A stretch of DNA of 32,625 nucleotides, from sequence record SRR2962707_4322. The stretch is one strand, 5' to 3'. The notes under the pieces are model-generated. The model was given only the letters and a program-made list of their open reading frames with translations, did no database searches and had not been told where the DNA came from. Numbering within the stretch: position 1 is the first letter of the stretch; every line of letters starts with the position of its first letter. Shown here piece after piece: positions 7,915 through 22,215 of this stretch. The position numbers were made by a program, and so were the translations under genes.

Positions 7915-8964
7915 ATGGAATCGTACATGCTCGAAAAAGTGAATCTGCCGTGCGCCTGGCTGGCAGAGGATCTTGCACGCGATAAATCATGGGTCCGCCC
8001 GTTCAGTGACGATGATATTGCTGAACTCGAAGAAGCCTTGCGCTACTCCAAGTCGAAAGGCCTGGCGGAGCAGGAAGTGACGGCGGCGGACTTCCCCCTG
8101 CCAAGATTGTCAGGGGCACTGAAGGATGTTTGCCGCGATCTGGAATCCGGCACCGGTGTCGTGATGCTGCGTGGGTTTCCCGTCGAGAACTACAGTTACG
8201 AAGACCTGCGCCGCATTTATTGGGGTATGGGCCAGCATATGGGGTCACTGGAGTGCCAGAACACCAAAGGTGAATATATGCAGGAGATCACTGATCTCGG
8301 GCTTGATTACAATACCGACCAGCATCGTGGCAGCATGACGTCGGCCAAGCTGCGCCCGCATTGTGACCCAACCGATGTTGTCGGCCTTTTCTGCATTCGT
8401 CCGGCCGTAGAAGGCGGGGCCAGCACAATCAGAAGCTCCACGGCAATTTTCAACGAAATCGTCGAGAAGCACCCGGAATACCTGCCGGTGCTCTATCGCG
8501 GCTTCCCTTATGATCTTGATGGCAAGGCGCCGTCGGGTGATCCCAAGGAAGTGACCCACTTCATGCCGGTTTACAGCTGGTGCGAAGGACTGGTCAGCTG
8601 CCGCTTCAATCAAAAGGCGATCGAGGATGGCGCACGCAAGATCGACCGTCCGTTGAGCAAGCTCGAGCAAGATGCGATCGACTTTGTCGGCAACCTGGCG
8701 ATTGATCCGCGGTTCGAATACGCCATGGATTTCCAGCCCGGCGACATACAGTTGCTGAACAACTATGTGACCCTGCATTCCCGCGAACATTACATCGACG
8801 GGGATACGCCGGAGACAAAACGTCTGTTGCTCCGGCTTTGGGTCAATCATGAGTGGGCGCGCCCGCTGGAATTCAGGTTCGCAAACAAGATGCTGATGGG
8901 TGCGCGCAAAGGCGTGGCCCCCAGTGTTGCGTCCTATGAGCTGCCGCAAAGATTGGCGAGCTGA
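7915..8964 (+). CDS. TauD/TfdA family Fe(II)/2-oxoglutarate dioxygenase (clavaminate-synthase-like)
   Basis: GVVMLRGFP; HxD motif PHCDPTDVVGLFC; distal His and Arg in PGDIQLLNNYVTLHSR...RLLLRLW. Confidence 0.9.
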   Translation: MESYMLEKVNLPCAWLAEDLARDKSWVRPFSDDDIAELEEALRYSKSKGLAEQEVTAADFPLPRLSGALKDVCRDLESGTGVVMLRGFPVENYSYEDLRRIYWGMGQHMGSLECQNTKGEYMQEITDLGLDYNTDQHRGSMTSAKLRPHCDPTDVVGLFCIRPAVEGGASTIRSSTAIFNEIVEKHPEYLPVLYRGFPYDLDGKAPSGDPKEVTHFMPVYSWCEGLVSCRFNQKAIEDGARKIDRPLSKLEQDAIDFVGNLAIDPRFEYAMDFQPGDIQLLNNYVTLHSREHYIDGDTPETKRLLLRLWVNHEWARPLEFRFANKMLMGARKGVAPSVASYELPQRLAS

Positions 8965-9038: not shown

Positions 9039-9077
9039 ACCGGTTAATCCCTGTTGTCTTCGGGCAGCAGGGCCGGT
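9039..9077 (+). other. Stable C(UUCG)G-tetraloop RNA hairpin in the tctC leader
   Basis: CCCTGTTGTC-TTCG-GGCAGCAGGG (with G-U pairs), extended by ACCGG/CCGGT. Confidence 0.55.
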
Positions 9078-9104
9078 GGCGTTATCATCAAAGGAGAGGA
9101 AATC

Positions 9105-10112
9105 ATGTCCAAGAGAATGAACAAATGGATTGGGAAGGGCATTGTCGGTGCCTTTGCGTGTGCGTTGGTTGCAACAACGACATTCGTAACGGCAGCGGTT
9201 GCCGACGAGTGGCCGGACAAACCGATTACCGTCATTGTACCCTTCGGTTCAGGTGGCAGCACGGACCGTTCCGCGCGGGCGCTGGCATCGTTCCTGCCTG
9301 GTGAACTGGGCCAGCCCGTTACCGTGATCAACAAGCCGGGTGGCGGTGGCCAGCTGGGGCATAGCTGGTTTCTCCAGCAGCCGGACGACGGCTCGACGTT
9401 GCTGTTCACCTCGGGCTCGCCCTACATCGGCAACAACATCCTGCACACCGGTGCCAAGTTCAAGATCAGCGATTTCGCATTCATCAATGCACAGTGGGTG
9501 GATTGGGATCTGATTGCCTGCCACAAGGATCGTCCGTGGAATTCACTGGTCGAGCTTCTGAACGAGGTGAAAGCCAAGCCGAAAACCATCAGCTTCAGTG
9601 TCGTTCTCGGCTCGAGCGGCCGGCTGACGATTGCGGCTCTGCTTGAAGCCATGGGTCTGCCGAACGATGCCATCAACGTCGTTGTCTATCAGGGCGGTGC
9701 AAAACCGCGAACGGCTCTCGCCGGCGGACAGGTTGACTGTTCGATCATCGGTGGCGAAGGCAGCACGGAAATCAAGGAATTCATCCGTCCGCTCGCCGTT
9801 GTCCGCGAAGAAGCACATCCGGATTGGGATGCGCCGATCGTCAACGAAGCTCTGAAGCCTCTTAACGTCGAAATCCCGCTGATCAGCGGCGGTATCCGGA
9901 CCATTGCCGCGCAGGCCTCTTTCAAAGAGAAACATCCGGAGCGTTTCGCCAAGATCGTCGCTGCCATCGAAAAGACGACCAAAAGCAAGGATTTCCAGAA
10001 GTTTGCCGCACGCTCCCAGTTGGGTGCGGAATGGCACGGTCCGGAAAAAACCTCCGCCATGGTTGATCACAACTTCACTTTCCTGAAAAAATATGCCGAT
10101 CTGGCAAAATAA
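9105..10112 (+). CDS. tctC: Tripartite tricarboxylate transporter substrate-binding protein (TctC/Bug family)
   Basis: Signal peptide, WPDKPITVIVPFGSGGSTDRSAR, LGQPVTVINKPGGGG, YQGGAKPRTALAGGQVD; ATG 9105 follows AAGGAGAGG. Confidence 0.92.
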   Translation: MSKRMNKWIGKGIVGAFACALVATTTFVTAAVADEWPDKPITVIVPFGSGGSTDRSARALASFLPGELGQPVTVINKPGGGGQLGHSWFLQQPDDGSTLLFTSGSPYIGNNILHTGAKFKISDFAFINAQWVDWDLIACHKDRPWNSLVELLNEVKAKPKTISFSVVLGSSGRLTIAALLEAMGLPNDAINVVVYQGGAKPRTALAGGQVDCSIIGGEGSTEIKEFIRPLAVVREEAHPDWDAPIVNEALKPLNVEIPLISGGIRTIAAQASFKEKHPERFAKIVAAIEKTTKSKDFQKFAARSQLGAEWHGPEKTSAMVDHNFTFLKKYADLAK

Positions 10113-10146
10113 GAAAAAGATTGCCGTATAGGGAGGAAATCAGGCT

Positions 10147-10626
10147 GTGTCAGAAGAGAATTCACATGCCGCACACCGTGGCGGCATCCAGTGGGGGCAT
10201 CTCGCGTTCCTGCTGGGGGTCCTGGGATTTCTCGGGTACTACCTCCGGGACAGCTGGCAAGCTCAGGCCAGCGTCGGAAACCTGATTTTCATCCTGCCGG
10301 TAACGCTGCTTTGCGTCTTCACGGTCGCCGTTATTGCGGCCGCTCTCCTGCGCAGGAAAGCAACAGAAACCGCTCAGGGCGAGCAGGAAGGGGATGAAAA
10401 TTTCCTGCCGCTCGTTCTGTCGGTTGCTCTGTTTGCCTTGTACGTCGTTCTTCTGCCGCGCATCGGTTTTGATGTCGGTACGTTTATATTCATCGCTCTT
10501 GTCCTGATCGTTCTCGGAGAGCGCCGCCCGGTCTTTATCGGCATTTACGCATTGGCCTTTTCGGCGCTGACCGTACTGGGGTTCAAGGCGATGATACCGA
10601 CTAACATTCCCACGTTAATATTATGA
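10147..10626 (+). CDS. tctB: Tripartite tricarboxylate transporter small membrane subunit
   Basis: About 4-5 hydrophobic segments, LYVVLLPRIGF motif, lies between tctC and tctA. Confidence 0.85.
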   Translation: MSEENSHAAHRGGIQWGHLAFLLGVLGFLGYYLRDSWQAQASVGNLIFILPVTLLCVFTVAVIAAALLRRKATETAQGEQEGDENFLPLVLSVALFALYVVLLPRIGFDVGTFIFIALVLIVLGERRPVFIGIYALAFSALTVLGFKAMIPTNIPTLIL

Positions 10627-12137
10627 TTTTCGATTTTGAGGCTATCCTAGCCGCCTTCAATCTGTTGACCGGATCATGGGAGCCGTGGATTGTCGTGCCT
10701 CCCGGACTGATAATCGGTCTTGTCTTCGGGGCCATCCCGGGGCTGTCGATTTCCATGGGCATGGCGGTATTCCTGCCGATGACCCTTTATATGGATTTCG
10801 TCCCGGCCATGCTGTTCCTGACGTCGATCTTTACCGGCGGCACGTTCGGGAGCGCCGTTCCGGCGATATTGATGAACATTCCAGGCTCGGCGACGGCTGT
10901 TGCCACGGCGTTCGACGGATACCCGATGTCCAAGCAGGGCCGTCACAATGAAGCCCTCGGTCTTGCGCTGGCGGCATCGACGTTTGGAACCGCCATTGGC
11001 TACATCATCCTGTTCATCCTGATCCAGCCGATTGCAGATCTGGTATTGCGTATCGGACCGCCGGAAATGTTTCTGATCGTGGTTTGGGGACTGACGATGA
11101 TTGCGGCAGTCCGGGGTCATCATTTTGGCAGGGGCATCCTTGCCGGTGCCCTCGGCACCCTGATCGGAACGATCGGCTTTAGCCAGATCGGCGTGGTCAG
11201 GGGGACGATGGGGATCGACGAGATGCTCGACGGCATACCTGTTGTCCCTGCAATGATCGGGTTATTTGCGGCATCGGAATTGTTCAATCTGATGCAGAAA
11301 TCGTATCTGGTGGAAGACCCTGAGGCACGGCGATTGAATTTCCGCGGTATCCTGAGCGGGTTCAGACAGGCTTTTGCCTATCCGGCCGTACTGATACGCG
11401 GCAGCCTGATCGGGACACTGATCGGGGCCGTACCCGGTGTCGGCGGTTCGATTGCGAACCTGATCTCTTATGCGGAAACGAAGCGCCGGGCGAAAAAGGG
11501 GGAAACCTTTGGTGATGGCAACCCCAAGGGCGTAGTTGCCTCGGAAGCGGCCAACAGTAGTTCCGAAGGGGGCTCCATGGTCACCCTGCTGGCACTTGGT
11601 TTGCCGGGTGGCAGTGGAACCGCGGTGATGCTGGCGGCGTTCGCGATGCACAACATCAACGGCGGGCCACGATTCATTCGTGAGAACACGGATATCGTCT
11701 ATGCCATCGTGTTTTCCAATTTCGCCCAGACCATTGCACTGATGGTCATCGGCCTGATGTTCGTCCATTTGCTGGCGAGTGTCGTCCGGGTGCCGCTCCG
11801 GGTGCTCATTCCATCCGTGCTGGCGCTGTCGGTGATGGGGTCATACGGCCTCGTCCAAAACATGTCGGGTCCCTATACAGTTCTGGTTTTTGCCGCTTTG
11901 GGCTGGGTCATGCGGCGATACAACTATTCGGCCGCCGCCATGGTTATCGGCCTGCTGCTGGGACCGATGGCGGAAGCGGAACTGTTGCGAAGCTATCAAC
12001 TGGGCGGCAGCGATCTGACCTATGTGCTGTTCCGTCCGGGTGTGCTGTTTATCATTTTCGCGCTGGCTCTCGCCGCCGTTGCACCACGTCTCTACCGCTG
12101 GTGGCGAGGGCGTGGCGCCGTACAGGAACAAACCTGA
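10623..12137 (+). CDS. tctA: Tripartite tricarboxylate transporter large permease
   Basis: GAIPGL, PAILMNIPGSATAVATAFDGYPMSKQG, FGDGNPKGVVASEAANSS, LALGLPG; ATGA-type overlap with tctB. Confidence 0.95.
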   Translation: MIFDFEAILAAFNLLTGSWEPWIVVPPGLIIGLVFGAIPGLSISMGMAVFLPMTLYMDFVPAMLFLTSIFTGGTFGSAVPAILMNIPGSATAVATAFDGYPMSKQGRHNEALGLALAASTFGTAIGYIILFILIQPIADLVLRIGPPEMFLIVVWGLTMIAAVRGHHFGRGILAGALGTLIGTIGFSQIGVVRGTMGIDEMLDGIPVVPAMIGLFAASELFNLMQKSYLVEDPEARRLNFRGILSGFRQAFAYPAVLIRGSLIGTLIGAVPGVGGSIANLISYAETKRRAKKGETFGDGNPKGVVASEAANSSSEGGSMVTLLALGLPGGSGTAVMLAAFAMHNINGGPRFIRENTDIVYAIVFSNFAQTIALMVIGLMFVHLLASVVRVPLRVLIPSVLALSVMGSYGLVQNMSGPYTVLVFAALGWVMRRYNYSAAAMVIGLLLGPMAEAELLRSYQLGGSDLTYVLFRPGVLFIIFALALAAVAPRLYRWWRGRGAVQEQT

Positions 12138-12176
12138 TCAGAACAACAATCATATAAATTGAGGAGATACCCCGAG

Positions 12177-13043
12177 ATGAAAAAATCGACCGAACTTCGC
12201 CGGCTGATGGCGGAAAGCGCACCTGTCGTTGCACCTGGAGCATATGACGGGATGTCGGCAAGGCTGGTTGAAATGGCGGGGTTTTCGGCGGTTTATGCGA
12301 CGGGGGGCGGCATTGCACGCAGCACCGGTATCCCCGACATGGGGTTAATGAGCCTGTCCGATATCGTGGTTCGGCTGCAGTCGATGGTGGATGCGGTCGA
12401 TATGCCGCTGATCGGTGATGCGGACACGGGGCACGGCAACGCCCTGAATGCCGAACAGACGGTTCGGGCATTCGTGCGTGCAGGTGTCGCCGGGGCGCAT
12501 ATCGAAGACCAGTCATTCCCGAAACGCTGTGGTCACTATGAAGACAAATCGCTCGCGCCGACATCGGAGATGGTTCAGAAAATCAGGGCCATGAAGAACG
12601 CCAGCCTTGATCCTGATTTCGTTCTGATTGCGCGGACCGATGCGCTGGCGGTTGAAGGTTATGACAGTGCCATCGAGCGAATGAACCGCTACATGGAAGC
12701 CGGGGCCGATGTCGCCTTTGTCGAAGCGCCGACAAGCGTCGAGCAGATCGAGCAGATTGCAAAAGACCTGCCGTTCCCGAAACTGATCAACATGTTTCAT
12801 GGCGGCAAGACCCCGCTTGTCGGGACGGAGCGGCTCGGCGAGTTGGGATATGACATCGTCATTATCCCGAACGATACCCAGCGTGCGGCCATTCATGCGA
12901 TGCAGGAAACCTTGTCTGCGATCCGCGATGAAGGTCACAGCGGAAGGCTTCAGGACCGGATGGCTTCGTTCCAGGACCGTGAAGAGATCATCGGCACGCA
13001 GGCCTACATGGATCGTGACAAGAAATATGCGGAAGCCAGCTAA
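12177..13043 (+). CDS. Isocitrate lyase/PEP mutase superfamily C-C lyase (2,3-dimethylmalate lyase/methylisocitrate lyase-like)
   Basis: PGAYDGMSAR, DADTGHG, HIEDQSFPKRCGH catalytic loop, IARTDA, AGADVAFVEAP, NMFHGGKTP; ATG 12177 after GAGGAG. Confidence 0.9.
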   Translation: MKKSTELRRLMAESAPVVAPGAYDGMSARLVEMAGFSAVYATGGGIARSTGIPDMGLMSLSDIVVRLQSMVDAVDMPLIGDADTGHGNALNAEQTVRAFVRAGVAGAHIEDQSFPKRCGHYEDKSLAPTSEMVQKIRAMKNASLDPDFVLIARTDALAVEGYDSAIERMNRYMEAGADVAFVEAPTSVEQIEQIAKDLPFPKLINMFHGGKTPLVGTERLGELGYDIVIIPNDTQRAAIHAMQETLSAIRDEGHSGRLQDRMASFQDREEIIGTQAYMDRDKKYAEAS

Positions 13044-13082
13044 CGCTCTCCACCAATCCCGGTTGAACTGACGGAAGCCACC

Positions 13083-15776
13083 ATGACCAAGAATAGCCTC
13101 AATACCTGCCGCAAGCTCGAAGTCGATGGCGAGACGTACCACTATTACAGCTTGAAAGCTGCCGAAGATGCAGGGGCGGGGCAGGTCATGAAAATGCCGC
13201 GCAGCCTGAAAGTTCTCTATGAAAACCTTCTCAGGCATGAAGACGGGATCGGCATCACCGAAGACGATCTCATGGCATTTACGGGACGCAGCCGGGAAAT
13301 TGGGTGCGGTGCCGAAGTGCTGTATCACCCGTCACGGCTGATGCTGGTCGATTCATCCGGTGTGCCTCTTCTTGCCGATCTGGCTGCCTTGCGTGAAGCG
13401 ATGCTGCGTAATGGCGGTGATCCGATGACGATCAATCCGGCCATTCCGTGCGAACTCGTCATCGATCACTCGGTGATGGTCGATTTCCAGGGCACAGCCG
13501 ATGCGCTGGATAAAAACATGGATCTTGAATACAGCCGTAACGGCGAGCGGTATCAATTCCTGCGCTGGGCCGAAAAAGCCTTCAAGAATTTCAAGATCGT
13601 GCCGCCGGGAACGGGGATCTGCCACCAGGTCAATCTCGAAGCACTGGCGCGTGGTATCTGGATCGATAAATCCGAAGGCCGCACGATGGTGGCCCCGGAA
13701 ACGCTGCTGGGAATGGACAGCCATACCCCGATGATCAATTGCCTCGGCATCCTGGGCTGGGGTGTGGGTGGTCTGGAAGGCGGCGCGGCGATGCTGGGCA
13801 TGCCGGTATCCATGATCTTCCCCCGCGTTGTCGGGTGCAGACTGAGCGGCGCCCTGAAGCCCGGCGTGACAGCAACGGACATGGTCCTGACGTTGACCCG
13901 TCAGTTGCGTGAATATGGCGTTGTCGCGGCCTTCGTTGAATTTTTCGGACCCGGCGTTGGAAATCTCAAGCTTTCGGATCGCGCGACCCTTGCTAACATG
14001 TCGCCTGAGTACGGGGCGACGATGGGGTTTTTCCCGATTGATGAGGAGATGCTCAGCTACCTCGAGAAAACCGGGCGGGGGGAAAACGTGCCGCTGATCC
14101 GGGCCTATGCTCAGGAACAGGGGCTTTGGCATGATCCGGATGCGCCGCAGCCGTCCTACAATGAAGTGGTCGACTTCGACTTATCGTCCGTGGAGCCGAG
14201 CATTGCCGGCCCGAACCATCCGCACAATCACACGCCGCTTCCCAAGGCCAAATCCAAGTTCGCGGATACGATCATTCCGTCCTGTGCGACGTTGCCGGAT
14301 GATGGTGTCTCCGTTGAGGGCGCGGCATGGAAACTGAACCACGGCGATATCGCGATTGCCGCGATTTCCAGCTGCACCAATACGTCCAACCCGGCGGTGA
14401 TGATTGCGGCTGGATTGCTCGCACGGAATGCCGTCGAGCGTGGTCTGTCCGTCAAACCGTGGGTCAAAACCTCGCTGACACCCGGATCACGCGTCGTCGC
14501 CGATTATCTCAAGACCTCGGGGCTGCAGGAGTCGCTGGATCAACTCGGGTATCAGGTTGCCGGTTTCGGCTGTACGACCTGCATGGGGAATTCCGGGCCG
14601 CTGGCGGCGAATGTCGAAGCGGCGGTGAAGGCCAACGACGTCGCCATGGTTGCCGTGCTCTCGGGGAACAGGAACTTTGATGGGCGCATCCATCCACTGG
14701 CGCGGGCAAATTTCATCTGCTCTCCGCCCCTGGTCATTGCCTATGCCCTTGCGGGAAGCATGCGCGTGGACCTCACGACGGAACCTCTCGGGCACGACAA
14801 GGCCGGGAACCCTGTCATGCTGTCCGATATCTGGCCGGACCCCGCTGAATTGAGCGAGATTATCGATACGGTCCTTGTCGCCGAACGCTACACCAGTATT
14901 TACGCGGGGATGTTCGATGGTGACGCCAGGTGGCGGTCTGTCGATGGCGGGGACGGCACGCTATTTGAGTGGCCGGACGATACATACATGAAACGCCCGC
15001 CGTTCTTTAACGACATTGAACCGGCACTGCCGGCGATCGGCGATATACGCGGTGCCCGGCCGCTGGCGATGTATGGTGACGGGATCACCACGGACCACAT
15101 TTCTCCCGTCGGGACGATCACGGAAAGTTCGGCCGCAGGCCAGTACCTGATCGATCAGGGCGTGAAGCCGGCGGATTTCAATTCGTTCGCGGCCAGACGG
15201 GTCAATCATGACGTCATGATTCGCGGGACGTTCGCCAATATCCATATCCAGAACCAGATGGTGCCGGACCGGAAGGGCGGCTGGACACGGCATGAACCAA
15301 GTGCCGAGATCGTTCCCGTCCATGAAGCCGCCCAGCGCTATCGCGATGCCGGGGTGGACCCGATCATCATTGCCGGGCGTGAATACGGCCAGGGATCGTC
15401 ACGGGACTGGGCCGCGAAGGGAACCCGGATACTGGGTGTGCGCGTCGTCGTTGCTCAGGGGTTCGAGCGGATCCACCGTTCCAACCTCGTCGGCATGGGG
15501 GTGCTGCCGCTTCAGTTCGAAGAGGGGACATCCTGGACGTCTCTGGGGCTGGACGGCACGGAAACCTATGACATTACCGGGATTGATCTCATGCGCGGCC
15601 CGCGATCAATGCTTGATTTGCAGATCAACAAAGCCGATGGAACCAGTTTCAACGTCCCCGTTTTGTGCCGTCTGGATACACCGCTTGAGTTCCTGTACTT
15701 CCTGAACGGCGGGATCCTTCATTACGCGGTTCGTAACGAAATTGCACCTGAGCAGGCGAACGCCTTGCCGGCCTGA
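13083..15776 (+). CDS. acnA: Aconitate hydratase AcnA-like protein (divergent substrate motifs)
   Basis: VIDHSV, GICHQVNLE, DSHT, SCTNTSNP and GCTTC (three Fe-S Cys), SGNRNFDGR, TTDHISP, GSSRDWAAKG, FERIHRSNL. Confidence 0.9.
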   Translation: MTKNSLNTCRKLEVDGETYHYYSLKAAEDAGAGQVMKMPRSLKVLYENLLRHEDGIGITEDDLMAFTGRSREIGCGAEVLYHPSRLMLVDSSGVPLLADLAALREAMLRNGGDPMTINPAIPCELVIDHSVMVDFQGTADALDKNMDLEYSRNGERYQFLRWAEKAFKNFKIVPPGTGICHQVNLEALARGIWIDKSEGRTMVAPETLLGMDSHTPMINCLGILGWGVGGLEGGAAMLGMPVSMIFPRVVGCRLSGALKPGVTATDMVLTLTRQLREYGVVAAFVEFFGPGVGNLKLSDRATLANMSPEYGATMGFFPIDEEMLSYLEKTGRGENVPLIRAYAQEQGLWHDPDAPQPSYNEVVDFDLSSVEPSIAGPNHPHNHTPLPKAKSKFADTIIPSCATLPDDGVSVEGAAWKLNHGDIAIAAISSCTNTSNPAVMIAAGLLARNAVERGLSVKPWVKTSLTPGSRVVADYLKTSGLQESLDQLGYQVAGFGCTTCMGNSGPLAANVEAAVKANDVAMVAVLSGNRNFDGRIHPLARANFICSPPLVIAYALAGSMRVDLTTEPLGHDKAGNPVMLSDIWPDPAELSEIIDTVLVAERYTSIYAGMFDGDARWRSVDGGDGTLFEWPDDTYMKRPPFFNDIEPALPAIGDIRGARPLAMYGDGITTDHISPVGTITESSAAGQYLIDQGVKPADFNSFAARRVNHDVMIRGTFANIHIQNQMVPDRKGGWTRHEPSAEIVPVHEAAQRYRDAGVDPIIIAGREYGQGSSRDWAAKGTRILGVRVVVAQGFERIHRSNLVGMGVLPLQFEEGTSWTSLGLDGTETYDITGIDLMRGPRSMLDLQINKADGTSFNVPVLCRLDTPLEFLYFLNGGILHYAVRNEIAPEQANALPA

Positions 15777-15863: not shown

Positions 15864-18515
15864 TCAAACCTCACTGAGCGCAGCCCATTCTCCCTGTCGC
15901 AGCCTGTCCATGACCGGCGTCAGATCAGCCTTTGAGTTGATCGCCGGGGGCAGATCCTTGGCCGTGCCGGGTGGGCCGACGAAGACCGCGCCGACAATCC
16001 GCCCCTCTTTGACCACAAGGCGCCGATGCGTGTTGCCGGTTTCCTCGGCATCCTGAACGATTTCCGCGTCGTCATCTTCCAAGCGGCCATAGCCTTTCAC
16101 GTCGATGCCGGTCATCTTGAGGCTGACCATGGTGTTGGGAGCTTCGTAAACGGTATCCTGACCGAATAAACCTCTGGCTGCCACCACCGCCTGGGCGGTA
16201 CCGACAGACCAAAGTCCGCCCACATTGCCCGGTAATTCGGCGACGTCGCCCACGGCATAAATGTCAGGGTCGGATGTCTGCATGGTGTTGTTGACGATGA
16301 CGCCCCTGTTGACCTCCAGCCCGATCTTTTCCGCGAGCTGCTTGTTCGCTTCGACACCGGCGCAGACGACGAAGATATCCGCCGGGATCACGTCGCCATT
16401 TGTCAGTTCGATACCCTCGACCTTGCCATTCCCTTTGACGGCCTTGACCGAAGCGCCGGTAATCACCTGGATGCCGAGGTTCTCTAGGAACTGCTCCAGG
16501 AGCTTGCTGCCGCGCTCGTCCAGTTCCCGGTTCATCAATCGATCTGAGCGTTGAATGATGGACGTTTCCAGATTGAGCTGACGCAAGGCATCGGCGGCCT
16601 CTACCCCGAGAACGCCGCCGCCTTGGACAACAGCCCGGACACAGCCCTTTTCCTGGCGCCAGGTGCGGATCGCCTGGGCGTCGGTCGCTTCACGCAGGAC
16701 GAAGCAACCCGGCATGTCATTGCCCTCCGCCGGCGGTTTGGCGGCAGAGGAACCTTGCGCCATGACCAGCTTATCGTAAGCGAGTTGCTCGCCAGTGCCC
16801 AAGGTGACGACCTTGTCAGTCCGGTTCACATCAACGGCCTGGGTATTGAGCCAGAGATCGACGTTCTTCTTTTCGCACCAGTCCGACGCCATCAGATAAA
16901 GCTCGTCCAGACCGCTGCGTCCGTACAGCAGCCGGCCAATCGCCATGCGATTGTAGAAGGGGTAATTCTCACGGGCGACGATGTCGATCTTGCACGAGGG
17001 GCTGAGCCGTCGGATTTCATCCGCAGCCGCCATGCCTGACGCGCCATTGCCGATGATCACCACTTTCTCGATGCCCGTTTCTACGCTCAGATCGACCGCA
17101 TCCGCAGCTGGAGGCGGCTCAGGCAGGTCATTCGGGTCCGTCTCCAGATCGATCGTGACGCCCCCGCCGACGGCCTTGCAAACGCAGGCCAGGCGCGCAC
17201 GCCCTTCCAGCCCCATGCGGCGCAGAGTCGCCAGTTCATCCTCGGTCGGCGGGCTCAGGTTATCCATACCGTCAATGATGGCGATTGCATCCGCCCCGCA
17301 CATGCCCATGCGGCAGCCGAAATCCAGAGTCAGGCTCGCGGACTCGATCCCTTCCAGCAGGCTGCGACCGGGATTGGCAGCGAAGCTCCGGCCGGATGCC
17401 CGATCCGTTACCAGATCGTCCGCAGCAGTGGCGCCGCCGGCGCGGACAGCATCGACTTTGACACCGACCTTCGGCTGGTCGGAACCTTCTTTGAGGGCAC
17501 GGAAGTCTTTCTCAGCCTTTAACCCGTTGTAGATAACGCGCACTGTAACCAGAGCTACCACGGCCTGAAGGGCATAGCCCGCTTGGGCCGGTGCTGTTGC
17601 GCCGACCAGACGGAAGGCGGTGTCGATGATGCCTTGGCTTGTGAACCAGTAGAAGATGTTCAGGGCAGAAAGTGCTGAAATCGCGGCAATCAGATAATCC
17701 GACATCCGAAAGAAAATGCGCACGGCCATATAGATGCCGAGGGTCGTGACGATCCAGCCGCTCATGTGCAGGAAATAGGCAATCAGCCCGGTCTTGGACG
17801 GATCGACGGCGGTGAAAAAGCCGATGGCGAAACCCGGCAAACCGGCGACGAAAAACTTCTTGTGGCCGGCGTACCAGAGGTCTTGATCCGAAAGATCACT
17901 GAGGAAGGCCGCGCGGGGATTGAAATCGTAGCAGTTTTTCTGGCATCCGACGCAGGTCGGACAATAACCGTTTTTGACGGTGACGACCGGTGCGTGGCCA
18001 TAGGCTTTCTGGATCGGCGCCAGCGGACAGAAGGTGCCGCACCAGCCGCTTCTTCCCTTGAACAAAAGGCCCCCAAGGAATGCCAGACCCAAAGCCACGA
18101 GGATCAACAAAGTCCAGGCCAGTGGTTCCTTGTTGAAATATACATGGCGAAGGCTGACCAGAAAAAAGAATGCCAGGACGGAAATGAAATAGGCCAGATT
18201 CTTGGCCTTCACCGGCAGGGTCAGTTCGCGGGAAAACCCGAATGTCCGTGGCAACTGGTTCAGGAAGGCCATCGGACAGATTTGCCGCCAGATGCCGGGT
18301 GCCACGGCGAACACCAGAGGCAGCGACGGGATAAGCAATTTCCAGAAAAGAGCGAAACCAAAATCCGGGTCGGTCCAGACTGCCCAGACAACGAGCAGCA
18401 TGACGCTAAACGTGACCGCGCGGAAACCCCACCAGAACCACTGGGGCAATCGGGACGGCATTTCCAGATAGCTGGGAAAGGGCTTATAGGCAGTGTCATT
18501 CATCGGCTTGTCCAT
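15864..18515 (-). CDS. Multidomain membrane redox protein: polytopic Cys-rich (4Fe-4S-type) domain, 2Fe-2S ferredoxin and FAD/NAD(P)H-dependent reductase
   Basis: Many TM segments with ICPMA, WCGTFCP, CPTCVGCQKNC; ferredoxin GCRMGMCGAD...RLAC; reductase VVIIGNGASG, LAYDKLVMAQGS, VVQGGGVLGVE, QTSDPDIYAVGD. Confidence 0.88.
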   Translation of the reverse strand: MDKPMNDTAYKPFPSYLEMPSRLPQWFWWGFRAVTFSVMLLVVWAVWTDPDFGFALFWKLLIPSLPLVFAVAPGIWRQICPMAFLNQLPRTFGFSRELTLPVKAKNLAYFISVLAFFFLVSLRHVYFNKEPLAWTLLILVALGLAFLGGLLFKGRSGWCGTFCPLAPIQKAYGHAPVVTVKNGYCPTCVGCQKNCYDFNPRAAFLSDLSDQDLWYAGHKKFFVAGLPGFAIGFFTAVDPSKTGLIAYFLHMSGWIVTTLGIYMAVRIFFRMSDYLIAAISALSALNIFYWFTSQGIIDTAFRLVGATAPAQAGYALQAVVALVTVRVIYNGLKAEKDFRALKEGSDQPKVGVKVDAVRAGGATAADDLVTDRASGRSFAANPGRSLLEGIESASLTLDFGCRMGMCGADAIAIIDGMDNLSPPTEDELATLRRMGLEGRARLACVCKAVGGGVTIDLETDPNDLPEPPPAADAVDLSVETGIEKVVIIGNGASGMAAADEIRRLSPSCKIDIVARENYPFYNRMAIGRLLYGRSGLDELYLMASDWCEKKNVDLWLNTQAVDVNRTDKVVTLGTGEQLAYDKLVMAQGSSAAKPPAEGNDMPGCFVLREATDAQAIRTWRQEKGCVRAVVQGGGVLGVEAADALRQLNLETSIIQRSDRLMNRELDERGSKLLEQFLENLGIQVITGASVKAVKGNGKVEGIELTNGDVIPADIFVVCAGVEANKQLAEKIGLEVNRGVIVNNTMQTSDPDIYAVGDVAELPGNVGGLWSVGTAQAVVAARGLFGQDTVYEAPNTMVSLKMTGIDVKGYGRLEDDDAEIVQDAEETGNTHRRLVVKEGRIVGAVFVGPPGTAKDLPPAINSKADLTPVMDRLRQGEWAALSEV

Positions 18516-18545
18516 CAGCTCTTCCAGCCCCTTCCGTAATAGGTA

Positions 18546-19010
18546 TTAGTCGTTGTTTCGTTGCGTGGTCCAGCGCAGCCGCATGGAGAGGATACGGCCT
18601 AGATCAAAGAGCAATGTGCGTGCGATCCGGGGTTCCCATGCGGCAAGGGTTTCAAAATTCTGGCGGGTAATTCTGACGGCGTTTCCCTGGCTGCGGGCGC
18701 GTATCGTGGCACTCCGCGGCAAACCGTCGAAGAAAGCGATCTCACCGAACACGGAGCCTTCGGAAATGCTGGCCAGTACCGACTCGGTGCCGTTTGCTTC
18801 GATCACCACATCAACCTGGCCGCTGGTCAGGATATAAAAGGAATCGTCTTTTTCACCAGCCCGGATCAAGTCGTCATTCGCCTTGAACTGGCGGGTCTCG
18901 ACGATGTTCAGAACTCGGCCCCAATCCTCTTTGGACAGGTCTCCAAGCAGTATGATCTCTGAAAGTTCCGATGGCGCCACGGACGTGTCGGCATAGTCGA
19001 ACAATCCCAT
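18546..19010 (-). CDS. Stand-alone cyclic-nucleotide-binding domain protein
   Basis: LIRAGEKDDSFYILTSGQVDV, phosphate-binding cassette FGEIAFFDGLPRSATIRA, ends after the C-helix with no HTH; ATG 19010 follows AAGGGGGG. Confidence 0.92.
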   Translation of the reverse strand: MGLFDYADTSVAPSELSEIILLGDLSKEDWGRVLNIVETRQFKANDDLIRAGEKDDSFYILTSGQVDVVIEANGTESVLASISEGSVFGEIAFFDGLPRSATIRARSQGNAVRITRQNFETLAAWEPRIARTLLFDLGRILSMRLRWTTQRNND

Positions 19011-19200
19011 AGTTTCCCCCCTTAAAGACGCTCGCCGTGCCAAAGCCGGACGCTGCCTGAATTTAAACTTTCAAGCTGATTATTATATTATTTATCTGGG
19101 ATAATCGTCAGTAGCAATACAGTCGATTAACACAACCAGCATTGGGGGCTGGGCGGCTGCGGCGCTGATATCTTCGCCGGTTTCATATCCTTTGGTGTGA

Positions 19201-21141
19201 TTAAATGCCCGGCCCCGGCTGCGGATGGCGCAGGTAGGTATAGCTGTCCAGACACGACTCATAGAAGTCGACGAGTTTTACCCCGTCACGTGACCGCAGC
19301 TGTCCGCCCGCAACGGTGGCATCGATCATGGCTTTCACCCGTTTCGCCATGGCGTCCGGACTGTACTGCATGATCGACAGCACCTGTCCCGCTGACGTTC
19401 CTGTGACATATTCCTCGATATAGAAGCCGCTGGCGTCGTTCGGGTCGGCAAAAATATGCGCTTCGTTCAGGCGGCCGAACAGGTTGTGCATGTCCCCCAT
19501 GACGTCCTGATATGCGCCGGTGAGAAACAGGCCGATGTAGTAATTCTCTCCCGGTGACAGGGTATGCAGGGGCAGGGAGTCCCGGTTGCCCACATCGCCG
19601 ATGAAGCGTGTGATCTTGCCGTCACTGTCACAGGTGATGTCCGCCAGGGTGCAGTTGCGCGTGGGTTCCTCGTTCAGCCGGGCCAGCGGTGCGACCGGCA
19701 GCACCTGCTCGATCGCCCAGCTGTCGGCGGCAGACTGAAACAGTGAAAAGTTACACAGATACTGCGAGGTCAGTATGCCTTTCACATCATGCAACTGTTC
19801 CGGCACGAAGTCCTCGGTCTTAATGCCGCCGGCGACGGCCCGCATGAGTTGCCAATACAGGCTTTCCCCGCGGGCCAGTTCCTCGAGCCGCAACACGCCG
19901 AGCTTGAAGCCGTGCAGGATGTCGTCCATCAGGACCACCGCTTCGTTATAGACATCCTGATAGTTTTTGTCGGATTTCAGGTCGTCCAGCAGATCGCGCA
20001 TGTTGGTGACCAGGATGTGTTCGCCGTCCACCGGCGCGGTATCGATGGGATTGGAATCGTTGGTGATTTCACCAAGCACCCGCATGACCACGCAGGAGTG
20101 ATGCGCGGTGATGGCACGTCCGCTTTCGCTGACCAGAACCGGCTCTGCGACCTCTTCCTGTTCGCACATCTGTTTCACCGCAAAGACCACGCCGCGGGCG
20201 TAATCGGCCATGGTGTAGTTCATCGATGAATGGCCGCTGGACCGCGTGCCGTCATAATCGACGGCAAGCCCGCCGCCGATATCCAGGTATTGCAGCGGCA
20301 CGCCCCGCTTCACCAGACGGGCGTAGATACGCGCCGCTTCCTGCACGGCGTCACGCACGAACCGGATGTCGGACAGCTGGCTACCGGCGTGGAAATGCAG
20401 CAACTGGATCGTGTCCGCGTATCCGCGTTCCTGGATCAGCTTCACGGCATTGAGGATTTCGGAAATGGTCAGCCCGAATTTGGCGCGCGAGCCGCTGGAC
20501 TCGCTCCAGCGACCCTCGGCCTTGGCCCGCATCTTGACGCGCAACCCGATGATCGGCGTCACCTGCATTTCATCGGCGAGATTGAGCAACGGTGCGATCT
20601 CGCTGAATTTTTCGATGACCACCACGACCTTGCGTCCGAGCTTGCGCCCGAGCAGCGCCAGACGCAGGAAATCCTCGTCCTTGTAGCCGTTACAGATGGT
20701 CAGGGCCTCGGGGCCGGTGTCATACGACAGGACCGCCAGCAGTTCCGGTTTCGAACCCGCTTCCAGGCCGTAATGATAGGGAAGCCCGGCTTCGACGATC
20801 TCGTCCACCACTTCGCGCATCTGGTTGACCTTGATCGGATAGACGCCCCGGTAGGGGGCGCCGTAATTCATTTCCTCGATGGCATTGGAGAAGGCCAGGT
20901 TCAACTGGCTGACCCGGTTCCGCAGGATGTCATGGAAGCGCATCACGACGGGGAACTGGACGTTCTTTTCACGCAATTCCACAACGACATCGGCCAGAGC
21001 GATGGAGACATCCTTGTCATCGACGGTCGGCAGGATGCGCAAAAGCCCATCGTCCCCAACCCCGAAATAACCGTCGCTCCAGCGCTGAATCCGATACAGT
21101 TCCTCAGCGTTCTCCGAACTCCAACCCGTCATATATGGCAT
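19201..21141 (-). CDS. speA: Biosynthetic arginine decarboxylase
   Basis: YPIKVNQ (PLP Lys), GLEAGSKPEL, ICNGYKD, AKFGL, LLHFHAGSQ, DIGGGLAVDYDG, SESGRAITAHH, DITCDSDG, GAYQDVMGDMHNLFG; SD spacing favours ATG 21132. Confidence 0.96.
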   Translation of the reverse strand: MPYMTGWSSENAEELYRIQRWSDGYFGVGDDGLLRILPTVDDKDVSIALADVVVELREKNVQFPVVMRFHDILRNRVSQLNLAFSNAIEEMNYGAPYRGVYPIKVNQMREVVDEIVEAGLPYHYGLEAGSKPELLAVLSYDTGPEALTICNGYKDEDFLRLALLGRKLGRKVVVVIEKFSEIAPLLNLADEMQVTPIIGLRVKMRAKAEGRWSESSGSRAKFGLTISEILNAVKLIQERGYADTIQLLHFHAGSQLSDIRFVRDAVQEAARIYARLVKRGVPLQYLDIGGGLAVDYDGTRSSGHSSMNYTMADYARGVVFAVKQMCEQEEVAEPVLVSESGRAITAHHSCVVMRVLGEITNDSNPIDTAPVDGEHILVTNMRDLLDDLKSDKNYQDVYNEAVVLMDDILHGFKLGVLRLEELARGESLYWQLMRAVAGGIKTEDFVPEQLHDVKGILTSQYLCNFSLFQSAADSWAIEQVLPVAPLARLNEEPTRNCTLADITCDSDGKITRFIGDVGNRDSLPLHTLSPGENYYIGLFLTGAYQDVMGDMHNLFGRLNEAHIFADPNDASGFYIEEYVTGTSAGQVLSIMQYSPDAMAKRVKAMIDATVAGGQLRSRDGVKLVDFYESCLDSYTYLRHPQPGPGI

Positions 21142-21237
21142 CTCCTTTTCCAGGGCTCTTTATACGCATGCACATTGTGTGAATGCTAGCTGCATGCAAT
21201 AACCGAACAGAGAAATTTGCATGATCGGGTGCTTCTG

Positions 21238-22215
21238 ATGGGCAGTGGTGACGACGGTGATCAGGCGTTTCGCAAGGATTCCTTGCTTGGACGCGCGGCG
21301 GAAATGACCTACGCCGGGGCGTTGAGTTTTCTGCGTCGCCGCTATAGCCGGGATTTAACCGGCGCGGACGTTGCCGTCAGCGGCATTCCCTACGACGGCG
21401 CCGTGACATACCGCCCGGGCGCCCGGCTCGGGCCGCGTGCGATCCGCGCCGCATCGGTGCAACTGGCCGAACTAAAAGCATTCCCCTTCGGCTTCGATCC
21501 ATTCGAGACACTGGGTGTTGTCGACATGGGGGATTGCTTCATCGACCCGCATCACCCCGAGACGGTCGTCGATACGATCACGGATCACATCGCCGGCATT
21601 CTGGCGGCAGGCGCGATACCGCTCAGTTTCGGCGGAGACCATTTCGTGACCTATCCGATTTTACGCGCCATCGCCAGCAAGCATGGTGCGGTATCGCTGC
21701 TGCATTTCGATGCCCACTGCGATACCTGGGATGACGACGGGAAACGCTTCGATCACGGCTCGATGTTTCTGCGGGCGAAAAACGAAGGGCTGATCGATGT
21801 CGCGCGCTCGGTTCAGGTCGGTATTCGCACCCATAACGATTCCGATCATGGATTTGAAATCCTGACCGCGCCCTGGGTGCACCGCCATGGGATTGATGCC
21901 ACCATCGATGCCGTGCGTGCACGTGTCGGCGAAGGGCCCGTCTATCTGACCTTTGATATCGATTGTCTGGACCCGGCCTTTGCGCCCGGGACCGGGACCC
22001 CGGTGGCCGGTGGATTGTCGTCGGCACAGGCACTGGGAATTGTGCAGGGGTTGAGCGGGCTTGATCTGGTCGGCGCCGACGTGGTGGAAGTCGCGCCTGC
22101 CTATGACGTTTCGGAAATCACGGCCATCGCGGCGGCGACAATCGCACATGACATCCTTTGTCTGCTGGCGCTCCGGAAGGGTGCGAAACCAAGCCCGACA
22201 GGCCGCCAGGACTGA
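21238..22215 (+). CDS. speB: Agmatinase (ureohydrolase family)
   Basis: RPGARLGPRAIRAAS, GGDHF, HFDAHCD, DHGSMF, TFDIDCLDPAFAPGTGTP, DVVEVAP; adjacent to speA. ORF track start is TTG 21217; ATG 21238 is more likely. Confidence 0.92.
   Translation: MGSGDDGDQAFRKDSLLGRAAEMTYAGALSFLRRRYSRDLTGADVAVSGIPYDGAVTYRPGARLGPRAIRAASVQLAELKAFPFGFDPFETLGVVDMGDCFIDPHHPETVVDTITDHIAGILAAGAIPLSFGGDHFVTYPILRAIASKHGAVSLLHFDAHCDTWDDDGKRFDHGSMFLRAKNEGLIDVARSVQVGIRTHNDSDHGFEILTAPWVHRHGIDATIDAVRARVGEGPVYLTFDIDCLDPAFAPGTGTPVAGGLSSAQALGIVQGLSGLDLVGADVVEVAPAYDVSEITAIAAATIAHDILCLLALRKGAKPSPTGRQD

Follow-up and report, generated by a model that had tools for sequence, protein, structure and literature searches.

The 32,625-nt stretch of sequence record SRR2962707_4322 (hereafter the window) carries two adjoining genes at positions 15864..19010 of the minus strand. 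The first (18546..19010, -) encodes a 154-aa stand-alone cyclic-nucleotide-binding (CNB) protein. The second (15864..18515, -) encodes, from its ATG, a chain of 883 aa in which a membrane Fe-S domain, a ferredoxin and a flavin reductase are fused. The gene pair is a conserved, self-contained unit. We propose, with a probability of about one half, that it is a signal-gated oxidoreductase carrying electrons from NAD(P)H through FAD and Fe-S clusters to a membrane acceptor, and that in the branch containing the window it is switched by a cyclic nucleoside monophosphate (cNMP). The electron-transfer chain is always tied to a signal receiver. In trans, this is either a cNMP receptor or an FHA scaffold accompanied by a degenerate CNB protein; in cis, it is an FHA domain, with a kinase gene alongside. 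Control of the enzyme by the module would best explain this pattern.

Each domain of the two proteins is of a known kind. Their combination in a single chain has not been described, and neither has the Fe-S domain of eight helices or a signal partner that is obligatory. The first-pass annotation of the window knew of no characterised system with this architecture, and that assessment still stands: the best NCBIfam scores were far below their cut-offs, and a full-text literature search, with subscription journals outside its coverage, returned nothing on this architecture. New in this analysis are the strict division of the partner proteins into two types, the monophyly of the second type and the adjacency of kinase genes to the fused forms of the enzyme.

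A conserved pair with exchanged signal modules

The full-length architecture of the 883-aa protein is common (670 matches), and its members are named only as FAD-dependent oxidoreductase or nitrite reductase large subunit. The locus survey was carried out on species-representative genomes and covered the best 80 of 292 related stretches. Contig ends cut seven of the 80 loci (L011, L024, L027, L043, L068, L069 and L070); of the 73 that could be judged, 66 had a CNB homologue immediately upstream in the same orientation. The stop codon of the CNB gene was at most 134 nt before the large-gene match in 63 of these 66 loci, and paired loci were found in Alpha-, Beta- and Gammaproteobacteria and in Eremiobacterota/Vulcanimicrobiota. 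Isolates of Hoeflea, Rhodoblastus and Rubrivivax are among the cultivable carriers of the family. When the flanking open reading frames (ORFs) of the 80 loci were clustered all against all, no other gene cluster occurred in more than 21 loci. The neighbours of the pair in the window (speA, agmatinase, aconitase, phosphoenolpyruvate (PEP)-mutase-like and TctA genes) recurred in L003 only, where arginine decarboxylase and agmatinase-like genes stand 3.5 kb from the pair. Since the pairing is kept while the flanks vary, the adjacency is not due to chance, and the CNB linkage that the first-pass annotation had left to a neighbourhood survey proved to be conserved.

An alignment of the 66 upstream CNB homologues separated them into two types. 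Type A, found in 30 loci and in the window, has a phosphate-binding cassette of the form FGE[IL]AFFD..PR[ST]A, with its Glu and Arg present in 30 of 30. Type B, found in 36 loci, reads FG[ILM]xSFLDGxxSA, and both residues are gone. The two types are single-domain proteins, type B still matching PF00027 above the cut-off, and they have in common an N-terminal FxY motif and a C-terminal AAWxPxxAxxLLxDLG...RLR segment. A gene for a protein with FHA and T6SS_FHA_C domains adjoins the CNB-like gene in 35 of the 36 type B loci (divergently in L013 and L021); the exception, L066, has no upstream DNA to judge. Such a gene stands next to none of the 30 type A loci, and the sole FHA domain near a type A pair belongs to the cyclase-FHA protein of L015. 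These adjacencies were taken from BLAST clusters, with Pfam checks of the representatives and of all exceptions.

In a quick, unrooted FastTree phylogeny of 73 large proteins, all 36 type B loci formed one clade (support 100) nested among type A. The clade also contained L022, which has an FHA protein in place of the CNB protein, and the unjudgeable L069. From these sequences, the loss of the cassette and the gain of the FHA gene look like one derived event, whose internal order we do not press because the tree is unrooted. The contigs L047 and L080, which belong to one metagenome-assembled genome, carry a type A and a type B pair, so the two wirings can coexist.

Since 36 of the 66 partners are without the contact residues, cNMP sensing is not what holds the pair together. 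Glu and Arg have been lost in these partners and an FHA protein has been added; what is conserved in the role of the partner is therefore that a signal module docks, and not the sensing of cNMP in itself. The enzymes linked to type A and type B partners are separated at only 2 of 883 positions (A224G and R663A), which are uninformative on the docking site.

Elsewhere in the family the FHA domain is part of the enzyme chain. Searched against 1.84 billion representatives, the membrane domain gave 918 cluster representatives at E<=0.001, of which 225 were at E<=1e-30, and in 16 of the best 150 matches the membrane domain began at residue 100 or beyond. An N-terminal FHA domain was present in the same chain in 11 of the 24 family variants scanned. 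A CNB domain was fused into the enzyme chain in none of the 24 representatives scanned, and in none of the 120 full-length matches listed. In a Nocardia locus (L074, coordinates 3535-8601), the FHA-fused enzyme is 1015 aa long, and 93 nt separate its gene from a Ser/Thr kinase gene upstream. The FHA-fused form occurred in five of 151 Nocardiaceae genomes (L074 and L095-L098), and a Ser/Thr kinase gene adjoined it in all five; four of these kinases carry an extracellular domain like that of PknH and are encoded divergently. In an Actinomycetota sample, the FHA-fused query was found in one of 301 genomes, its own.

Class III cyclases were present in all five relatives' genomes searched, with 3 to 11 matches each, and within 6 kb of the pair in three of the 30 type A loci (L015, L019 and L026). 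On the strength of this count, cyclase linkage was rejected as a conserved part of the unit. In L019 a divergent CHASE2-cyclase gene (3067-5367, -) adjoins the CNB gene, and in L026 a gene for a receiver-domain cyclase (2427-3938, +) lies on the same strand 1.6 kb upstream. In L015 a gene 2.5 kb upstream of the type A pair (2089-2967, -) encodes a 292-aa class III cyclase-FHA fusion, which hints at a link of phosphothreonine signalling to cNMP production in this system. The first-pass annotation had asked whether CNB genes or cyclases are linked or fused in homologues: CNB genes are linked and, in the variants scanned and the full-length matches listed, not fused, and cyclase genes lie near the pair in these three type A loci only.

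Make-up of the two proteins

The ORFs and the Pfam scan agreed with the first reading of the locus as a two-gene unit with a 30-nt gap, led by a lone CNB domain with an intact FGE...PRSA cassette. The sole Pfam domain of the 154-aa protein is cNMP_binding (PF00027, residues 40-123, E 2.9e-22, 78.9 bits against a cut-off of 27.5), and the scan found no DNA-binding or catalytic domain in it. The protein does not qualify as a member of the CRP/FNR group, as it has no C-terminal helix-turn-helix and reaches 61 bits against the 266 of NF008732, over model positions 17-136 only. All NCBIfam models that it matched (CRP family, CNB-Pat acetyltransferase, family 2B encapsulins and bacteriocin transporters) were below their cut-offs. 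The phosphate-binding cassette (18696..18749, -; residues 88-105, FGEIAFFDGLPRSATIRA) reads F88-G-E-I-A-F-F-D-G-L-P-R99-S-A, and its Glu90 and Arg99 align with the FGE...RSAT cassette of PKG. In PKA and CRP, the Glu of the cassette contacts the ribose and the Arg contacts the phosphate. The nearest solved relatives of the small protein are the CNB domains of PKG and PKA-R (E 1e-22).

For the 883-aa protein, Pfam, AlphaFold2 and an alignment of 76 homologous sequences upheld the architecture and the Cys clusters described at first. The membrane domain (17481..18515, -; residues 1-345) was predicted by AlphaFold2, when modelled alone, as eight long helices with a predicted local distance difference test score (pLDDT) of 90.3 and a predicted template modelling score (pTM) of 0.89. 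It contains C80-P81, C159xxxC163-P164 and C185xxC188xxC191xxxC195, and the positions of these motifs are invariant in the 76 aligned homologues, except C80, which is kept in at least 90%. The second and third motifs fall in the loop between helices 4 and 5 (17880..18059, -; residues 153-212) as GWCGTFCP and a 4Fe-4S-type CxxCxxCxxxC motif, both invariant in the 76 sequences. By the positive-inside rule, and since the helices that precede the cytoplasmic domains are even in number, the cytoplasm is the probable location of the N-terminus, the two loops with Cys motifs, the ferredoxin and the reductase.

Residues 1-345 matched no Pfam family above the cut-off. The match of PF12801 (Fer4_5) to residues 137-170 of the window protein scored 17.2 bits and did not reach the cut-off of 22; the family is recorded for four homologues (P0034, P0035, P0073 and P0085). 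Foldseek against the Protein Data Bank gave nothing better than E 0.45 for the membrane domain, and the best Z of a wide VIA-align search, 7.9, was limited to helical hairpins of 70 residues. The missing structural match does not prove that the fold is new. The nearest clusters in the ESM Atlas are unnamed proteins of 330-380 aa from Gemmatimonadota and Planctomycetota (score 0.95), which serve as a lead only. The 72 shorter membrane-domain matches were mostly fragments or split copies of the same family, and no other architecture was found among them. Three long forms of the enzyme (P0081, P0085 and P0087, 1181-1246 aa) have an extra helix, a Pro/Ala-rich linker and a conserved C-terminal domain of about 100 residues whose family is not known. 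Loci L016 and L017 have a long-form enzyme and no CNB neighbour.

The first-pass annotation had called the membrane domain NapH/CcoG-like. Against the NapH/MauN models, the window domain scored 18.9 bits to NF007013 (cut-off 234; E 6.4e-4) and 16.0 bits to TIGR02163 (cut-off 213). All six family membrane domains tested were weak matches to NF007013 (E 6e-6 to 3e-3, 16.6-25.6 bits), and their scores to TIGR02163 were 14.3-24.5 bits. A profile comparison by hhalign with a true NapH (L081, 428.7 bits to NF007013) gave a probability of 72% and E 3.4e-5 for a local alignment of 68 columns, whose core comprises helix 4, GWCGxxCP and CxxCxxC. NapH has four helices, and the NapH/MauN proteins are defined by a pair of CxxxCP motifs and a pair of 4Fe-4S ferredoxin motifs. 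In place of this two-plus-two set, the 883-aa protein has one CxxxCP (C159-C163-P164), one reduced CP (C80-P81) and one CxxCxxCxxxC. The membrane domain is at most remotely NapH-like in sequence: it may share the core, and it fails the defining features of the NapH family. Of the earlier label, the NapH part stands for a possible remote and local likeness below the cut-offs, and the CcoG part found no match, as detailed below.

The 2Fe-2S ferredoxin domain (17172..17408, -; residues 370-448) matched Fer2 (PF00111) with 24.7 bits against a cut-off of 21, and its nearest solved structure is Ferredoxin-4 (9i2a, E 8.5e-10). Its candidate ligands are C401, C406, D409, C444 and C446. They depart from the plant-type set Cx4Cx2C...C and are spaced as C401x4C406x2D409...C444xC446: Asp409, invariant in the 76 sequences, occupies the place of the third cluster Cys of 9i2a, with a CxC pair further on. 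The cluster may be ligated by an Asp, or else by both Cys of this pair.

The FAD/NAD(P)H ferredoxin-reductase module (15930..17066, -; residues 484-862) is composed of Pyr_redox_2 (484-775, E 1.4e-59, 202 bits), with Pyr_redox at 627-706, and Rubredoxin_C (798-862, 33.5 bits). Foldseek placed it on the TodA reductase (4emi, E 2e-32, TM-score 0.86 on the target), and putidaredoxin reductase, BphA4 and rubredoxin reductase were also among the matches (TM-scores 0.80-0.87 on the target). By sequence it matches the NirB-family N-terminal domain 3klj (E 3.7e-39). The NirB model of NCBIfam is covered only in its N-terminal half (positions 1-390 of 794, 290 bits against 578), so the 883-aa protein has no siroheme part. 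The NAD- and FAD-binding glycines are invariant and the cofactor residues are conserved among the 76 homologues. As the first-pass annotation had stated, no terminal oxygenase or siroheme domain is nearby: neither a Rieske oxygenase nor a siroheme domain, nor a cyclase, is encoded by any of the 27 ORFs of the window.

Proposed signal gating and its alternatives

In the mechanism that we favour, NAD(P)H would reduce the FAD of the C-terminal ferredoxin-reductase module, and the electrons would pass through the fused 2Fe-2S ferredoxin to the 4Fe-4S-type and CxxxCP sites on the cytoplasmic face of the eight-helix domain. Their next stop would be a membrane-embedded or membrane-associated acceptor; the analogy with NapH makes the quinone pool the likeliest one. 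In support of this mechanism, the reductase module can be superposed on ferredoxin-NAD+ reductases whose partners are 2Fe-2S ferredoxins. The invariant cofactor residues, the conserved pairing, the cassette intact in all type A partners, the exchange of signal modules on one enzyme, the class III cyclases in all five genomes searched and the local NapH similarity also count in its favour. The small protein would be a detachable regulatory subunit. Its N-terminal FxY and its C-terminal AAWxPxxAxxLLxDLG...RLR segments would serve for docking on the enzyme; in the window branch it would bind cAMP or cGMP in its canonical cassette and would switch the flow of electrons on or off. The architecture, the cofactor residues and the linkage are in line with the cNMP-modulated electron wire that was first suggested for the window; as 36 of the 66 partners are without Glu and Arg, such control is plausible for the window-containing branch only.

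Several observations weigh against this mechanism. Over half of the partners, as noted, have lost the cNMP-contact residues, and seven judgeable loci have no CNB neighbour at all (L016, L017, L022, L059, L074, L075 and L077, of which L074 encodes the FHA-fused enzyme). Cyclase genes are near the pair in just the three type A loci described above and are not encoded in the window. The 883-aa protein revealed no conserved partner enzyme, no haem-binding His and no recognisable quinone site. Its similarity to NapH is local and far under the family cut-offs, and the predicted cofactor sites are all on one face of the membrane. In the full-length AlphaFold2 model built from the 76-sequence alignment (pLDDT 84.1), the relative placement of the domains is uncertain, with a pTM of 0.56. 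A complex prediction for CNB residues 1-150 and fusion residues 11-858, run without alignments or controls, gave interface scores (ipSAE) of 0.02 and 0.03 and speaks neither way.

The strongest competing explanation, although an unlikely one, is that the large protein is a redox sensor. It would read the NAD(P)H/NAD(P)+ ratio or the redox state of the membrane and bind or release the CNB or FHA adaptor, which would then act on other targets. The only partners to be conserved are signalling domains that have no output domain themselves, the FHA+T6SS_FHA_C proteins are scaffold-like, and no terminal enzyme is linked, all of which would suit a sensor. However, a full chain of three cofactors with invariant NAD and FAD glycines would be costly for a sensor, an FHA domain in cis fits an input to the enzyme better than an output from it, and no downstream target is linked.

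Slightly more doubtful is a role in the manner of CcoG, in which the protein would reduce a substrate, for example Cu(II) or Fe(III), that is transported or lies at the cytoplasmic face, or would act in cofactor maturation, with the CNB protein tuning its activity. CcoG is described, in the passage of PMC8456105 that concerns it (citing Marckmann 2019), as an Fe-S protein of the membrane by which intracellular Cu2+ is reduced to Cu+. The predicted sites of the 883-aa protein all face the cytoplasm, and the other, periplasmic loops of the membrane domain are short (3-10 residues in the AlphaFold2 model), which would suit such a reductase. However, no CcoG/FixG model was among the matches at E up to 1 for six membrane domains, and no copper, iron or cytochrome-oxidase assembly genes recurred beside the pair in the 80 loci.

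We consider it improbable that the small protein is a structural subunit which does not respond to nucleotides even in the window branch, its cassette being kept for folding or for another ligand. Type B proteins retain the fold and the terminal motifs without Glu and Arg, and therefore the fold has a cNMP-independent role. However, Glu and Arg are present in every type A protein across distant lineages and are lost only where the FHA gene was gained, a pattern expected if these residues are functional in type A. That the two genes are neighbours by accident and work separately is very improbable in view of the same-strand pairing in 66 of 73 judgeable loci with variable flanks.

To our knowledge, few bacterial cNMP effectors are known beyond regulators of the CRP type. 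Many Alpha- and Betaproteobacteria encode several class III cyclases, and the pair is a widespread candidate cNMP effector. We suggest tentatively, with the odds somewhat against it, that the pair is the first case in bacteria of a membrane redox enzyme under direct cyclic-nucleotide gating by a receptor subunit of its own. It would then represent a new class of cNMP effector and a natural swap of inputs, cNMP in one branch and phosphothreonine (FHA domains with Ser/Thr kinases) in others, with the electron-transfer chain unchanged. On this reading, the supply of NAD(P)H electrons to the membrane would be under post-translational control by second messengers. One enzyme with three kinds of wiring (cNMP receptor, FHA scaffold, fused FHA domain with a kinase alongside) is a rare natural experiment, from which the control of an electron-transfer chain by a signal module should become easier to understand.

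Genomic setting and known systems

In the window, the ORF list gives the CNB gene as 18546..19043 (-), 165 aa starting with TTG; the ATG at 19010, which is preceded by the ribosome-binding site GGGGGA, gives 154 aa. The intergenic spacer (18516..18545, -) is 30 nt long and carries GGAAGAG ahead of the ATG of the large gene; both sites were read from the sequence. Upstream of the CNB gene lies a promoter-like site (19082..19111, -; CTGACG, an 18-nt spacer and TATAAT) that matches 10 of 12 consensus positions, and beyond it a terminator-like hairpin of the upstream speA gene (19136-19152, -); both are pattern matches only. Given the -35/-10-like site and the hairpin, the two genes look like a transcription unit of their own.

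Directly upstream of the CNB gene are the arginine decarboxylase gene speA (-) and a divergent arginase-family, agmatinase-like gene (+), at 19201-22215. Convergent with the large gene, at 9054-15776 (+), are genes for a TctCBA tricarboxylate transporter, a protein of the PEP-mutase/isocitrate-lyase family and an 897-aa aconitase, which look like a catabolic cluster of the tricarboxylate or methylcitrate type. The left end of the window (1-6497) contains a FecR-like gene and genes for a two-partner-secretion transporter of the ShlB/FhaC type and a secretin with TPR. The segment 25501-28368 holds a histidine kinase gene and, after it, a small ORF that encodes a partial molybdopterin-oxidoreductase domain; next to these is a gene for polyphosphate kinase 2.

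Among known systems, the membrane domain is closest in plan to the PF12801 group of NapH/MauN, NosR and PceC. These proteins and the 883-aa protein are polytopic and have a helix followed, on the cytoplasmic side, by GWCGxxCP and CxxCxxCxxxC. Unlike that group, the present protein has eight helices, no extracytosolic FMN-binding domain and its own NAD(P)H-FAD-2Fe-2S donor in the same chain. The NapH-like PF12801 proteins are presented, where PMC8238504 deals with them, as modular parts for membrane electron transfer, NapH itself being a putative quinone-binding subunit. The likeness to CcoG, within the description given in PMC8456105, is that of a membrane Fe-S protein acting on a substrate at the cytoplasmic face, whereas CcoG gave no detected sequence match to this protein and has no fused flavin reductase.

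The reductase module has the fold and motifs of TodA, putidaredoxin reductase, BphA4, rubredoxin reductase and the N-terminal half of NirB. The natural partners of the ferredoxin reductases of oxygenase systems are small 2Fe-2S ferredoxins or rubredoxins. In contrast to these reductases and to NirB, the ferredoxin is here fused upstream, a membrane Fe-S anchor is present and no oxygenase or siroheme domain follows. NqrF of the Na+-NQR complex is also membrane-anchored, joins a 2Fe-2S ferredoxin to an NADH-oxidising flavin domain and feeds a membrane complex of which it is one of six subunits. NqrF has an FAD domain of the FNR type and a single helix, whereas the present protein combines another reductase fold with a polytopic Fe-S domain in one chain.

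The small protein has the CNB fold and the cassette in common with other bacterial cNMP receptors, namely CRP, CNB-Pat, the family 2B encapsulins and the bacteriocin transporters. It differs from them as a lone 154-aa domain paired in trans with a redox enzyme, and it is set apart by its family-specific N-terminal FxY and C-terminal AAWxP...RLR segments.

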